NCBI GenBank assembly: GCA_963699255.1 | Contig: OY969425.1 | Coordinates: 60,001-92,000, forward strand | Source: an uncultured bacterium | GTDB lineage: Bacteria > Margulisbacteria > WOR-1 > CAVSGV01 | Length of the DNA stretch: 32,000 nt | Direction of reading: 5' to 3' | In this document: in pieces, positions 4,871-9,944 of the stretch | Numbering within the stretch: the stretch's first letter is position 1 | How the letters are laid out: each line of letters starts with the position of its first letter | Position numbers and translations under genes: made by a program | The notes under the pieces: model-generated | Databases searched by the model: none | Seen by the model: only the letters and a program-made list of their open reading frames with translations | What the model was told of the DNA's origin: nothing

Positions 4871-6412
4871 ATGGATGTAACAGATGAAGTGTCTTTTTGG
4901 TCCAGATTAGGATTTAAGGCGAACCCTTTCCAATATACAAATGCTGACCAGGAAGATGAATTGCATAAATATTTTGTGCCGCCTCAATATTTTCCGTCTG
5001 TATGGGGTGACCCTCAAAAACCCCAGTCTTGTGTGGTGTTTGCACCACGTGGTGGAGGCAAATCTGCACAAAGAAGAATGATCGAAAATCAAAGTATTGG
5101 GAGTAAAGTCCTTGCACTTCAGTACACAAGGTTTGAATTTAGACCGGGTATGCGCATATCGGACATAGATATTGAATATCATCTCAAAAACATTATTCGA
5201 ATATGTTTAATCGGATTTCTTATGCAAACATATGAGAATAAAATTGGGCATATGGTTTTCAATGCAACTGAAAAGAGGCAAGTTAAGGATCTATGTAATT
5301 TTTATTTACATGATATGAATACTGAAGCGGTTTCCGCAGCTGTAAATGCGATAATGAGTCCAGCCGAAAAAGCAAAAAAATTGTTTTATGAGAACTCATG
5401 GGTTATCGGACCAATTATTCAGATTTTAGCAAAAACGTATATAGGGATAGACTTATTCCCTTTAACACTTCAAGCTGATGATACATCAATAAGAAATGTA
5501 TCAAAGACGCACTTAGAGAACATATTATTACTAATTAAAAAGCTTGGTTATGATTCAGTATATGTATTAATTGATAAAGTCGATGAAACAAGCTTAACAA
5601 GTAATAATGCACAAGCTTCCTTTGATTTGATTGCTCCAATGCTTAAGGATTTAGAATTACTACAAATGGGTAATATTGCCTTCAAATTCTTTTTGTGGGA
5701 TGAAATCACTCCTTCATTTATTAAATATGCACGGCCTGACAGAATTACGGCATTTAATATGACATGGTTAGAAGCAGACTTAAAAAATATGATGACTCGG
5801 AGGCTGTGTGCTTATAGCAATAATGGTAAGCGCAATTTCGGAAATCTATTTGATGCTAAGATAGCCCCCATAGATGTCCTTGAAGAATTGCTTTCTATTT
5901 TCTCCCAGAATTCCCCAAGAGATATGATTCGGATATGCAGGCAAATGGCTGCTGAACAATTAAAAATTAACCCATCAGATAGCCATATAGGCATGACTGC
6001 TGCTACTGAAGGGATAAACAGATTTTGTCTTGACCGCGCGCGCGAAGTTGTTTCCACGAAGATTCTTGAAGAGCTTCAGAAAACTCACCGATTAGATTTC
6101 ACTGTAAATTATGTTGCAAATGATATTTTTAAAATAGACCAAAATGCTGCAAGGGCAAAAATTACCTCAAGTTGGGTGGTAACTGGTATTATAAGGCGCA
6201 TTGATGATACCCATATTAAGGGAGTAAAAAAACCAGCGCATCATTTTGCGGTTATGGATTCTAGGATTGCCAGATCAATATTCCCTGAACTAAACTTTCT
6301 GGATTTCTTAGAGAATAAAGTTCGTGAATGTAAATGCGGGGAATTTGTTCTTAGAGATTGGGATATTTCAAGCAATCAGATATGTCAAAAGTGCAAAACG
6401 CAAATGAAATAA
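4871..6412 (+). CDS. Orphan P-loop NTPase (AAA+/STAND-like) with a C-terminal zinc ribbon
   Basis: GGAGG SD is present. Walker A is APRGGGKS at nt 5042-5065. A Walker-B-like VYVLIDKVDE lies at about nt 5558-5587. The N-terminal LGFKANPF..A..E lead-in is common in AAA_22/ExeA-like and ORC-like ATPases, and SPRDMIRICRQ looks like a sensor/lid motif. The C-terminus has CKC-x17-CQKC at nt 6329-6394. The gene is clearly more AT-rich than its neighbours. Confidence 0.7.
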   Translation: MDVTDEVSFWSRLGFKANPFQYTNADQEDELHKYFVPPQYFPSVWGDPQKPQSCVVFAPRGGGKSAQRRMIENQSIGSKVLALQYTRFEFRPGMRISDIDIEYHLKNIIRICLIGFLMQTYENKIGHMVFNATEKRQVKDLCNFYLHDMNTEAVSAAVNAIMSPAEKAKKLFYENSWVIGPIIQILAKTYIGIDLFPLTLQADDTSIRNVSKTHLENILLLIKKLGYDSVYVLIDKVDETSLTSNNAQASFDLIAPMLKDLELLQMGNIAFKFFLWDEITPSFIKYARPDRITAFNMTWLEADLKNMMTRRLCAYSNNGKRNFGNLFDAKIAPIDVLEELLSIFSQNSPRDMIRICRQMAAEQLKINPSDSHIGMTAATEGINRFCLDRAREVVSTKILEELQKTHRLDFTVNYVANDIFKIDQNAARAKITSSWVVTGIIRRIDDTHIKGVKKPAHHFAVMDSRIARSIFPELNFLDFLENKVRECKCGEFVLRDWDISSNQICQKCKTQMK

Positions 6413-6502: not shown

Positions 6503-7063
6503 CTATTTCTTGATATTTATTGCCACTGACCGGCTGAACCAGATCTTAGGTTCTTCAAGAACATTAAACCCAAGGCTTTTTATCGTTTCTATCGACTTGC
6601 TAAAGTCTTTCTTTGAAACATGGAACTTCGGCTCAACTATTAGGACTTTCCCGTCCGGCTTCAATAACGTCTTTATTTCCTTCAACAACGCCAGCTGGTC
6701 GGGGATCTCGTGAAGGACATAAAATATCAAAATAAAGTCGAACTTTTCCGTTAAGCCTAACTTGTCCTTCGGGGTTATATATAGCTCTATGTTCTTAAGG
6801 CCCGAACGCTCGATCTTTTTCTTCAGTATCTCCAGCATCCCATCCTGCAGATCAGCCGCAACCACCTTGCCGGAAGCTCCCACCATCTTCGCCATATCCA
6901 TGGTGAAAAATCCCGGGCCGCAGCCAAGATCAAGCACCGTCATCCCTTCATTAATATATGGCTTTAATATCCGCTTCGGATCATGGGCCCGCCTGCGTAT
7001 CCCCATATCCAATATGCCCGAGAGTATTACCGGGCAGATTTTGTAGTTTATATCTAATTTCAT
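6503..7063 (-). CDS. Class I SAM-dependent methyltransferase
   Basis: SAM-binding motif I VLDLGCGPGFF is present, followed by VVAADL and the post-I/II pattern FDFILIFYVLHEI. Length is 186 aa with a TAG stop. Confidence 0.8.
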   Translation of the reverse strand: MKLDINYKICPVILSGILDMGIRRRAHDPKRILKPYINEGMTVLDLGCGPGFFTMDMAKMVGASGKVVAADLQDGMLEILKKKIERSGLKNIELYITPKDKLGLTEKFDFILIFYVLHEIPDQLALLKEIKTLLKPDGKVLIVEPKFHVSKKDFSKSIETIKSLGFNVLEEPKIWFSRSVAINIKK

Positions 7064-7254: not shown

Positions 7255-7302
7255 TTTCTTTGTTACTTTCTTTGTGTCAAGACAAAGAAAGTAAGAAAGA
7301 AA
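7255..7302. repeat. Imperfect 21-bp AT-rich inverted repeat (TTTCTTTnTTACTTTCTTTGT / ACAAAGAAAGTAAGAAAGAAA)
   Basis: Hand pairing of 7255-7275 with 7282-7302 gives 13 bp, one mismatch, then 7 bp, with a 6-nt loop. The right arm is the start motif of the repeated element. Confidence 0.7.
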
Positions 7303-7565
7303 TGCCTTTGTGTTGTTTAGACAAAAAATGATCTTAAATGATCGAGACGAGGGGCTCTGCCCTTACGTAGAAAGTATAGTGGTTCCATTAAGATATCTCT
7401 CTCATCCCGCCCATTTTCTTTCTGCTCCTTCCTTGACTTGCCTACTCCCCCGACACAAGGTCGAGGTCGTACGGCTCAAACAGAAGGCCTAACAATGAAA
7501 CCCCCTCTGTATCTCCCCCTTACTAAGGGGGAGAAGTCTTGCGCGCAAGCGTGAGACAGAGGGGG
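7284..7565 (+). repeat. Repeated structured non-coding element, copy 1 (possible ncRNA or relic of a mobile cassette)
   Basis: 7346-7425 matches 9605-9684 at 77/80. 7431-7550 aligns to 9745-9864 without a net indel. It contains nested hairpins: P1 pairs 7501-7509 with 7557-7565, and an inner TCTCCCCCT-tacta-AGGGGGAGA sits at about 7513-7535. No convincing ORF is present. Confidence 0.75.
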
Positions 7566-7583
7566 TGCAGACTTATTAAGAGG

Positions 7584-7612
7584 TTGACAATGGGATTTTT
7601 GGCTATTAGTAT
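7584..7612 (+). promoter_or_regulatory. Sigma70-like promoter upstream of the DUF5678-like/retropepsin pair
   Basis: TTGACA (7584-7589), N17, TAGTAT (7607-7612). A perfect palindrome GGGTTAACCC at 7635-7644 lies between this promoter and the AGAGGAGA SD. Confidence 0.4.
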
Positions 7613-7723
7613 GACTGCATCGGTCTCGCAAGAGGGGTTAACCCGTTATTCTTTAAGCCATAAATACTGAAATTTATCGCGTAATTTAATGATATATATG
7701 ATGAGAAGAGGAGAATTGATCCG

Positions 7724-7912
7724 ATGGACAACACATTGGTAAAAGATGAAAAATACGGCGGCCGGTTCGTGGCTCTGAAGAGCTTTGACGACAAAACAAT
7801 ACTTGTTGACGGGAAAGATCCGAAAGAAACCCTTGAAAAAGCAGCTCAAAAAGGGTTTAAAAATCCTGTAATATTCTATGTGCCGATAAAAGATATGGTT
7901 CAGATCTACTGA
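7724..7912 (+). CDS. Small DUF5678-like protein (62 aa)
   Basis: EKYGGRFVALKSFDDKTILVDGKDPKETLEKAAQKGFKNPVIFYVP matches my recollection of the DUF5678 pattern (Y.GKWVA...G.VV..G....E..EKA...G..nP.i..VP). The SD is good. The next ATG is 3 nt after its stop. Confidence 0.6.
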   Translation: MDNTLVKDEKYGGRFVALKSFDDKTILVDGKDPKETLEKAAQKGFKNPVIFYVPIKDMVQIY

Positions 7913-7915
7913 CAG

Positions 7916-8320
7916 ATGGGACTTCAGAACAAACCTTTTATTCAGATCGGCTCGGGAAATACTCCAAAACCCTAGCTTCCTATCGTTATAATAAATCCTC
8001 ATACCAAGAAAAGCGTTTCCACTTATGGACTTGTTGACACGGGTGCGGATGAATGCGCCTTGCCCGCTAGTTTTGCCGAAATACTTGGCCATAACCTGCA
8101 ACAAGGAAGCCCCAAGGAAATATCCACGGGGAATGGCATTACGATCGCATATTCGCATACTGTTTCAATTGAAACGGATGGCTTTCATACGGAGGATGTG
8201 TTGATCGATTTTATGCCCAATTTAAGCATTCCATTGTTGGGCGTGAGAAGCTTTTTGAGTAAATTTATTCTAACGATTAACTATAAAGAGCGAACTTTTT
8301 CTCTGCAGCCAAACAACTGA
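7916..8320 (+). CDS. Retropepsin-like aspartic protease with its frame interrupted by an in-frame TAG at 7973-7975 (pseudogene or readthrough)
   Basis: Reading from ATG 7916 gives MGLQNKPFIQIGSGNTPKP*LPIVIINPHTKKSVSTYGLVDTGADECALPASFAEILGH... The catalytic D-T-G-A at 8036-8047 lies upstream of the ORF-track start at 8060. No ATG, GTG or TTG exists between the TAG and the DTG motif. Confidence 0.6.
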
Positions 8321-9398
8321 TAAACTCCGCTTTCAGCCGGGTTTCGGCCCATTCGCCCTCCGCAGTGGAATCCCAGATTATCCCGCCGCCTATTCCCATC
8401 TCGCAACTTTTACCTCGTACAAGTATAGTCCTGATGGGAACATTGAAATACATCCCGCCATCGGGAGATATGTACCCGATCGCCCCCGTGTAAACATTCC
8501 TTTCTTCCTTTTCGATCTCCCTGATGATCTCCATCGCGCGTATCTTCGGCGCGCCGGTGACCGACCCGGAAGGGAAAAGCGCGGACATCAGTCTTGAGAG
8601 CTTGATATCAGGCGGGACTTTAGCGGTGACCGTGGATGTCATCTGGAACAGAGTTTTATATGCCGTTACCTTGAACAGGTCCCGCCACGCGATATTTCTG
8701 CCTATCCTTCCCAGGTCATTCCGCAAAAGATCCGCTATCATTATGTTCTCAGCCCTGTTCTTTCCATCATGGAAGAACCTGCGCTTCTCGATAACATCGG
8801 ATATCGCATTTTTCCCCCTGCGCCACGTGCCTTTCATCGGCTCAGTTAGAATATGCCCGCAGTTTTTCTTTATAAAACGCTCCGGGGAAAGCGACAGGAC
8901 CTGGAATCCTCCCGCGTCGATGTAAGCGGGATAGGGGACAGGCTGGCGGCGTAAAAGCTCTTTGTACAGCGCGTACGGGTCGCCCTGAAGATCGAATTTA
9001 TATTTTACGCAGTATGTTATCTGATAAACATCGCCGTTCGATATGTGCCGGCGGATGAGTCCGATATTGCGGGAGTAATCTTCAAATGAAATATCCGGCC
9101 TTAGATCTTTGATGCCGAAGGTCCCGGGTTTCCTCGATGTTGACTCCTGGCCACAAGCATTTTTATAAACGCCGAAAATAAGAAGTGGGAGATCAGAAGG
9201 GATCGCTGTGTATAATTTTTCTTCAAGGCAATAGCCGGCTTCGTATGAAATGTATCCCGCCAGCCAGTATCCGGCGGCGGAAAGATCCTCCAGCTCCTTC
9301 AGCGCGGAATGAAAATGCTGCGGATCATAACAGGCCACGATCTTTTCCGGATCGCGGAAAAAAAGCGGTTTGTTCTCAAAACTGGCCTGGACTTCCAT
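8277..9398 (-). CDS. pabB: Aminodeoxychorismate synthase component I / chorismate-binding enzyme (PabB-like, short form)
   Basis: Chorismate-binding motifs PSGSVTGAPK and GAIGY are present, along with GIGGGI near the C-terminus. An AAGGAG SD is present. Length is 373 aa. An anthranilate synthase TrpE-type assignment cannot be excluded by eye. Confidence 0.75.
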   Translation of the reverse strand: MEVQASFENKPLFFRDPEKIVACYDPQHFHSALKELEDLSAAGYWLAGYISYEAGYCLEEKLYTAIPSDLPLLIFGVYKNACGQESTSRKPGTFGIKDLRPDISFEDYSRNIGLIRRHISNGDVYQITYCVKYKFDLQGDPYALYKELLRRQPVPYPAYIDAGGFQVLSLSPERFIKKNCGHILTEPMKGTWRRGKNAISDVIEKRRFFHDGKNRAENIMIADLLRNDLGRIGRNIAWRDLFKVTAYKTLFQMTSTVTAKVPPDIKLSRLMSALFPSGSVTGAPKIRAMEIIREIEKEERNVYTGAIGYISPDGGMYFNVPIRTILVRGKSCEMGIGGGIIWDSTAEGEWAETRLKAEFISCLAAEKKFALYS

Positions 9399-9404
9399 GG
9401 ACTT

Positions 9405-9441
9405 ACTCCTTTAAGCCTGGGTGTCCCGGTTAAAGAGGAGT
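9405..9441 (-). promoter_or_regulatory. SD-sequestering hairpin in the pabB leader
   Basis: The minus strand reads ACTCCT-ct-TTAA-ccgggacacccaggc-TTAA-AGGAGT, then aagtcc, then ATG. The 3' arm is the SD of pabB. Confidence 0.4.
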
Positions 9442-9462
9442 GAAGTTCATGGCCCGGACATG

Positions 9463-9471
9463 ATTATATCA
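9463..9471 (-). promoter_or_regulatory. Extended -10 (TGATATAAT) promoter element for pabB
   Basis: The minus strand reads GTGATATAATCATG about 60 nt upstream of the pabB ATG. The -35 is weak. Confidence 0.35.
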
Positions 9472-9540
9472 CTTATAATTCCGGATGTAATTTCTTACCT
9501 TGTGAGCAACTGCTCGAAGCCGCGAGCCTGAAGGAATGTA

Positions 9541-9864
9541 AAAGAAAGTGGAAAGGAAATACCTTTTATGTAAAACAATGCAAAATGAAAACTAAAGTTA
9601 TCGTGACGATGGGCTCTGCCCTTGCGTGGAAAGTATAGTGGTTCCATTAAGATATCTCTCTCATCCCGCCCATTTTCTTTCTGCAGCGAAAGAAAATGGG
9701 GGAAAAGAACGCCGACAGGGGACAAGCCCCCTGTACCCCCACGGCCTTGACTCGCCTTCTCGTCCTCACCAAGCTCGGCCTCGTACGGCTCAGACAGAAG
9801 GCCTAATAATGAAACCCCCTCTGTATCTCCCCCTTACAAAGGGGGAGAAGTTTCGAACGCAAGC
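9541..9864 (+). repeat. Repeated structured non-coding element, copy 2
   Basis: It is homologous to 7284-7550. It carries an extra 60 nt (9685-9744) that completes a perfect 13-bp hairpin at 9669-9700 and adds a 7-bp hairpin at 9715-9734. It lacks the 3' strand of P1 that copy 1 has. Confidence 0.75.
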
Positions 9865-9865
9865 A

Positions 9866-9944
9866 AAAGAAAGTAAGAAGGAAAGGTATTATGTTTTTTT
9901 GAGTTAGAAACATGGAGCGAACTTTTTCTCTACAGCCAAGCAAC
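9866..9944 (+). repeat. Third partial start motif of the element, plus a 30-nt relic of the retropepsin 3' end
   Basis: 9866-9900 (AAAGAAAGTAAGAAGGAAAGG...) resembles 7284-7320. 9915-9944 matches 8288-8317 at 28/30. Confidence 0.7.

Follow-up and report, generated by a model that had tools for sequence, protein, structure and literature searches.

In a 32,000-nt stretch of DNA from an uncultured bacterium of the Margulisbacteria (the window; contig OY969425.1, positions 60,001 to 92,000 of the forward strand), a gene for a DUF5678-like protein is followed closely by a gene for a retropepsin-like aspartic protease whose reading frame is broken by an amber codon ahead of the catalytic motif. 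The locus raises two questions. Does the amber codon record a fresh inactivation, a stop that is read through at low frequency so as to dose a dangerous protease, or an error in the sequence? And what does the two-gene cassette do, in which the original prediction saw a toxin-antitoxin-like layout?

Layout of the cassette and its two products

The features of the locus are collected in Table 1. The two genes are separated by 3 nt (CAG), a leader of ~105 nt lies between the promoter and the DUF5678 ORF, and the protease frame runs from an ATG at 7916 to a TGA at 8318-8320. There is no in-frame ATG, GTG or TTG between the TAG and the DTG motif; the earliest is the TTG at 8060, past the motif, so any product of translational restart would lack the catalytic aspartate. 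The coordinates, the 3-nt gap, the promoter, the position of the TAG before DTGA and the absence of a restart codon ahead of DTGA had all been proposed beforehand and were confirmed on the sequence. The host genome is a single contig of 1.77 Mb with 47.5% G+C.

Table 1 Features of the DUF5678-protease locus, with positions numbered from the first letter of the window.
Feature	Position	Strand	Basis or remark
Cassette promoter, sigma-70-type: TTGACA, 17-nt spacer, TAGTAT	7584-7589 and 7607-7612	+	consensus match 10/12
Palindrome GGGTTAACCC, in the leader	7635-7644		read from sequence; probably fortuitous
DUF5678 gene, intact, 62 aa	7724-7912	+	PF18929
Retropepsin-like aspartic protease gene, 134 codons, nonsense-inactivated	7916-8320	+	PF13975, PF13650
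In-frame TAG, protease codon 20, derived from TGG (Trp)	7973-7975	+	
Catalytic motif D41-T-G-A, 3' of the TAG	8036-8047	+	read directly; invariant in protease alignment
PabB-like chorismate-binding gene, convergent	8277-9398	-	PF00425, E = 2.8e-78
Composite dispersed repeat, 5' of the cassette	7278-7559	+	second copy at 9535-9884
30-nt relic of the protease 3' end, 28/30 identical	9915-9944	+	repeat search, confirmed by blastn

The cassette promoter is the only strong match on its strand and is conserved in the nearest relative of the cassette (L007). A strict pattern, TTGAC[AT]-N16-18-TAnnnT at most 160 nt upstream of DUF5678, was found at 20 of 81 loci, compared with 0.65 in shuffled sequences. 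The predicted promoter is thus upheld by its own consensus match, by conservation and by enrichment upstream of homologues. The perfect 10-bp palindrome in the leader, which had been put forward as a plausible operator, fared differently. Such palindromes are present in 14 of the 81 homologous upstream regions, with 15.7 expected from shuffles, and this one is absent from the leaders of L007 and of a second close relative, L010. Being at chance frequency and not conserved, it was rejected as an operator, and the DUF5678 protein that might have bound it has no recognisable DNA-binding fold; the palindrome is probably best treated as chance. A structured leader RNA was also considered and rejected, because the leader folds no better than shuffled sequences (z = +1.0) and Rfam has no match in the window.

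The upstream product matches PF18929 over profile positions 4-49 of 49 with 27.6 bits, above the curated cut-off of 23.2, in agreement with the predicted DUF5678 assignment, and is 84% identical to its counterpart in L007. Its AlphaFold2 model (pLDDT 85.7) has a beta-beta-alpha-beta layout. Neither sequence nor fold comparison returned a significant relative in the PDB, and no HTH, RHH or AbrB fold, nor any other DNA-binding fold, was recognisable in the model. In the family alignment, the C-terminal I-Y is nearly invariant. Proteins whose genes overlap the protease gene by 11 nt carry 2-4 extra residues beyond it (Y-V-S, P-L-G or P-V-A-E); speculatively, the Tyr-Pro junction in the DUF5678 tail resembles retropepsin cleavage sites. 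A literature search found no published function for DUF5678 or for its paired protease.

Translated through the amber codon, the downstream frame scores above the cut-offs of two Pfam families, PF13975 (gag-asp_proteas; 33.5 bits, cut-off 28.2) and PF13650 (Asp_protease_2; 28.1 bits, cut-off 24.3). The motifs D41-T-G-A and L107-L108-G109 (hydrophobic-hydrophobic-Gly) are invariant or nearly so in the family, and both lie past the stop in the window. The AlphaFold2 model of the protease (pLDDT 88.9) adopts a retropepsin fold, for which the top Foldseek hits were ApRick (5c9f/5c9d; E = 5e-7, TM 0.65-0.74) and then the HIV-1, SIV and HTLV proteases. By sequence, ApRick was the only match in the PDB, and a weak one (E = 0.007). 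Pfam scores, fold and motifs therefore agree in supporting the predicted retropepsin-like assignment. No signal peptide and no membrane segment were found in the protease. In the model, Trp20 starts a strand (20-26) that precedes the strand leading to DTG, and the 19-residue product that ends before it cannot fold. Two NCBIfam models of clan AA subfamilies also align over the whole domain, TIGR03698 (DTGF; E = 1.9e-9) with 37.8 bits against a cut-off of 57.35 and TIGR02281 (DTGA; E = 2.9e-5) with 24.2 bits against 57.95; because these scores fall below the curated cut-offs, the protease belongs to neither subfamily.

APRc constitutes the soluble domain of a protein that is anchored in the membrane and processes autotransporters. 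The protease described here shares with APRc/ApRick of Rickettsia conorii (PDB 5C9B, 5C9D, 5C9F) a single-lobe DTG architecture and the expectation of dimerisation, but it is a minimal cytoplasmic domain of 134 aa, only ~21-24% identical to APRc/ApRick and always paired with DUF5678. Other operon-encoded retropepsin-like proteases include RimB of Pseudomonas, whose partners are RimA and RimK (PMC11957791), and the secreted aspartic proteases RloA-C of P. aeruginosa (PMC12239564). As described, both are set apart from the present protease in having no DUF5678 partner.

Origin of the amber codon

Aligning homologous cassettes, a check suggested with the original prediction, revealed a sense codon at the TAG position and no recurrent stop. 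In the DNA alignment, codon 20 reads TGG in L007 and L010, the closest relatives (89% identity at the protein level), and the adjoining 28 and 15 bases match the window without a difference. One G>A transition in a Trp codon therefore produced the TAG. In the protein alignment, all close relatives have Trp at position 20, and the residue is aromatic in 76 of 80 genome loci (W 41, Y 32, F 3, other 4). A stop at codon 20 occurs in none of these 80 loci and in none of ~100 relatives. A search with the read-through protein returned 937 homologues, nearly always 132-136 aa in full length and covering 97-100% of the query, so that codon 20 and the 19 residues before it form part of the conserved protein.

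The stop aside, the protease in the window has kept all 40 family-invariant residues. Relative to L007, dN/dS is 0.098 for the protease, 0.093 for protease codons 21-131 and 0.096 for DUF5678. A ratio of ~0.1 downstream of the stop, together with the retained invariant residues, shows that the stop is recent. From these sequence comparisons, nearly all of the divergence arose under purifying selection, and the window's copy is best described either as a pseudogene of recent origin or as a null allele that has yet to be fixed or lost. Accordingly, among the readings offered at the outset, fresh inactivation is the one that gained support, from the TGG in relatives, from the same TAG in a second contig (see below) and from a dN/dS of ~0.09 past the stop. 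We consider it very probable that the locus is a recent Trp-to-stop pseudogene inside a mobile DUF5678-retropepsin cassette. The amber codon itself is ordinary: it marks a young pseudogene and no recoding event.

On this account, the G>A change would have converted Trp20 from TGG to TAG in the window genome and translation would end after 19 residues. No active protease would be made, while the upstream DUF5678 protein would stay intact and expressed.

A sequencing or assembly error at the TAG, with TGG and an intact protease in the actual organism, is in our judgement quite improbable. The suspicion is natural, since the window differs from its relatives by one base at the TAG and the site lies in a CCWGG-like context (CCTGG in the relatives), a motif at which some long-read base calls contain substitution errors. 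However, a look-up of the exact DUF5678 protein led to a 2151-nt Logan contig (L011; run ERR10755942) that matches window positions 7508-9658 at 2150/2151 positions and carries the same TAG. Its sole mismatch, at 8267, identifies it as a separate assembly and not a copy of the window's assembly, although it may come from the same sample and could then share an error or a population polymorphism. Nor is there a sign of systematic conversion of CCTGG to CCTAG: the host genome contains 2067 CCTGG and 174 CCTAG, the latter against 156 expected, and internal TAGs are not enriched genome-wide. With both counts normal, a systematic CCWGG base-calling artefact was rejected.

Readthrough or suppression of the amber codon at low frequency, as programmed dosing of a dangerous protease, is highly improbable, being at odds with the decoding machinery of the host and with the distribution of stops in the family. 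TAG terminates 205 of 1057 ORFs of at least 250 codons (19%) in the host genome, RF1 is present (495 bits), no PylS scores above cut-off, and no tRNA-CUA is found among the 44 tRNAs listed by ARAGORN, findings on which pyrrolysine or suppressor decoding was rejected. What would suit readthrough is the early position of the stop, ahead of the catalytic Asp, a tRNA-Gln(CUG) that is available as a near-cognate decoder, and the C that follows the TAG. TAG-C is a relatively weak termination context, in which low basal readthrough may occur; however, because the relatives have TGG-C, this C is ancestral and was inherited along with the Trp codon. The three other nonsense codons in protease genes are a TGA at codon 19 (L025), a TAA at codon 65 (L073) and a TAA at codon 47 (L091). 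The first, one codon upstream of the window's TAG, could be taken to favour readthrough, but the three differ from it in kind and in codon, and such independent stops elsewhere in the gene argue that codon 20, which is never a stop in the relatives, is not a recurrent recoding site.

L025 belongs to an unrelated Omnitrophota genome, and its TGA (L025:2228) adjoins the position of the window's TAG. That two of the four known protease stops are adjacent is easily due to chance (roughly p = 0.1). In the ARAGORN search, a tmRNA was found alongside the 44 tRNAs and tRNA-Asn was not found; the single-contig genome is estimated to be 95% complete.

Pairing and spread of the cassette

We scanned the protease alignment against one genome per species, which returned 80 loci. 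In 80/80, as well as in L007, a DUF5678 homologue lies directly upstream on the same strand, so that the tight pairing and co-conservation anticipated from the single locus holds throughout. The two genes are -1 nt apart in 34 loci, -11 nt in 16 and 0 to +3 nt in another 16; overlapping or near-touching stop and start codons in most loci suggest translational coupling. The normal unit would be a ~0.74-kb operon with its own sigma-70 promoter, from which a 62-aa DUF5678 protein and a 134-aa single-lobe protease would be translated in coupled fashion. As judged from its fold, the protease would work in the cytoplasm as a homodimer, with one DTG aspartate from each subunit, and the invariable pairing suggests that DUF5678 is its obligate partner, perhaps as inhibitor, substrate or chaperone.

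The hosts include Omnitrophota, Nitrospirota, Elusimicrobiota, Desulfobacterota, Planctomycetota, Margulisbacteria/Saganbacteria and others, as well as one Methanoperedens archaeon, and the cassette proteins are 55-65% identical across phyla and this archaeon. The window and its nearest relatives are homologous only from 7583, at the -35 box, to ~8318, at the protease stop. On either side of this segment they are unrelated, even when the comparison is with L012, the copy carried by a member of the same family. The cassette was found in 8 of 146 genomes of its own phylum, in one of five other genomes of its own family and in 20 of 401 sampled Omnitrophota genomes. The pair is also present on four IMG/VR contigs; none was found in collections of cultured plasmids and phages. 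Restricted homology, patchy spread and an own promoter together point to a self-contained mobile module of ~0.74 kb. A search of the host genome found no second copy of the cassette, and complementation by such a copy was therefore rejected.

Elsewhere, the neighbours of the cassette include phoU and pgk, an nSTAND ATPase, a caspase-like protease and a nucleotidyltransferase pair. In the window, it is flanked by Mur-ligase/FolC-like and PabB-like genes, with an ORC/CDC6-like ATPase and a methyltransferase nearby. The former is a 513-aa protein (4871-6412) with an N-terminal ORC-CDC6-like domain (PF24389, E = 1e-7) and a faint PADLOC match to PDC-M28C (E = 0.005). The SAM methyltransferase (6503-7063, minus strand) lies in the same accessory region, which is bounded by the FolC-like and PabB-like genes.

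The last 44 nt of the PabB-like gene overlap the 3' end of the protease gene (8277-8320). Since the flanks of the relatives are unrelated, the PabB-like gene lies outside the cassette. Its last ~14 codons are the antisense of the cassette 3' end, which suggests that the cassette inserted onto the original end of pabB or took its place. Copies of a ~300-bp repeat, 82-88% identical, bracket the cassette and pabB, and segments of this repeat, notably a ~70-bp element at 7498-7566, are found ~10 times across the genome. The relic of the protease 3' end sits just past the second repeat copy, as if a second copy of the cassette had been deleted.

Possible roles of the DUF5678-protease pair

The interest of the locus lies in the cassette, a strictly paired, self-promoted unit in many bacterial phyla, one archaeon and a few viral contigs. 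Tentatively, the protease may be harmful when unchecked, with DUF5678 restraining it in a toxin-antitoxin-like manner, in which case loss of the protease would be cheap. A toxin-antitoxin-like or defence role for the cassette as a whole is likewise conceivable, if somewhat doubtful. We think it unlikely, though worth setting out, that the cassette is a new selfish or defence module of the toxin-antitoxin or abortive-infection kind, with the aspartic protease as its toxic effector and DUF5678 as a proteinaceous restraint. Were this true, the amber allele in the window would be a naturally disarmed copy that retains the antidote only, and if the protease is toxic and DUF5678 protective, aspartic proteases would join the effectors of toxin-antitoxin and defence systems. 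We know of no toxin-antitoxin family with an aspartic-protease toxin, and a literature search found nothing linking retropepsin-like proteases with toxin-antitoxin systems.

A toxin-antitoxin-like role is favoured by strict pairing, coupling, an own promoter, small size and mobility across phyla, and by neighbours that are often defence-type or toxin-antitoxin-type genes. In common with type II systems such as RelBE, VapBC and HicAB, the cassette consists of two small coupled genes with their own promoter, is spread patchily across phyla without flanking synteny and has a smaller upstream gene that sometimes occurs alone. The genes are paired, co-oriented and co-conserved, with gaps mostly of -11 to +3 nt. 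Unlike in type II systems, we found no DNA-binding, autoregulating antitoxin with an operator: DUF5678 has no recognisable DNA-binding fold, the upstream regions have no conserved operator, and at two loci the small gene is broken beside an intact protease gene. Also counting against a toxin-antitoxin role are the unusually strong conservation of both proteins and the lack of a convincing PADLOC match, since the protease matches PDLC01052 weakly (E = 8e-4) and not confidently, and DUF5678 has no match.

Several of these observations fit a different account, in which the protease is a non-toxic accessory enzyme of a housekeeping type, with DUF5678 as its dedicated substrate, pro-peptide or assembly factor, and its loss reflects neutral gene decay in a small genome. 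This is possible, although we would not call it likely, and it is compatible with the nonsense-mutation reading of the TAG. An accessory protease would sit well with the identity of 55-65% across phyla and a dN/dS of ~0.1, with the nearly invariant C-terminal I-Y of DUF5678, and with a partner that has neither a DNA-binding fold nor a conserved operator. On the other hand, the patchy distribution, the lack of flanking synteny and the own promoter fit selfish or defence modules better, as do the frequent nSTAND, caspase-like and nucleotidyltransferase neighbours and the restriction of whole-gene loss to the protease.

Patterns of gene decay bear on both accounts. Counting the window, point decay has produced four protease stops and two DUF5678 frameshifts, which matches the 134:62 ratio of gene lengths; because length alone predicts 4 versus 2, asymmetric point decay was rejected as evidence for a toxin. 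The two frameshifted DUF5678 genes, in L066 (97-313) and L038 (172-408), each lie beside an intact protease, and together with length-proportional point decay they speak for an accessory protease. By contrast, whole-gene loss was seen for the protease only. Of the 25 close-subfamily loci that were anchored on DUF5678, one retains a 24-residue protease stub (L111) and two have no protease (L119 and L097), whereas none of the 80 protease-anchored loci has a protease without a trace of DUF5678. This one-sidedness gives a Fisher p = 0.012 between two samples that were drawn differently; overall, gene decay is no more than weakly asymmetric. The natural null alleles show that the protease is dispensable while its partner persists, and provide ready-made experimental controls. 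The frameshifted DUF5678 genes of L066 and L038, unless they are assembly errors, are awkward for a simple antitoxin role.
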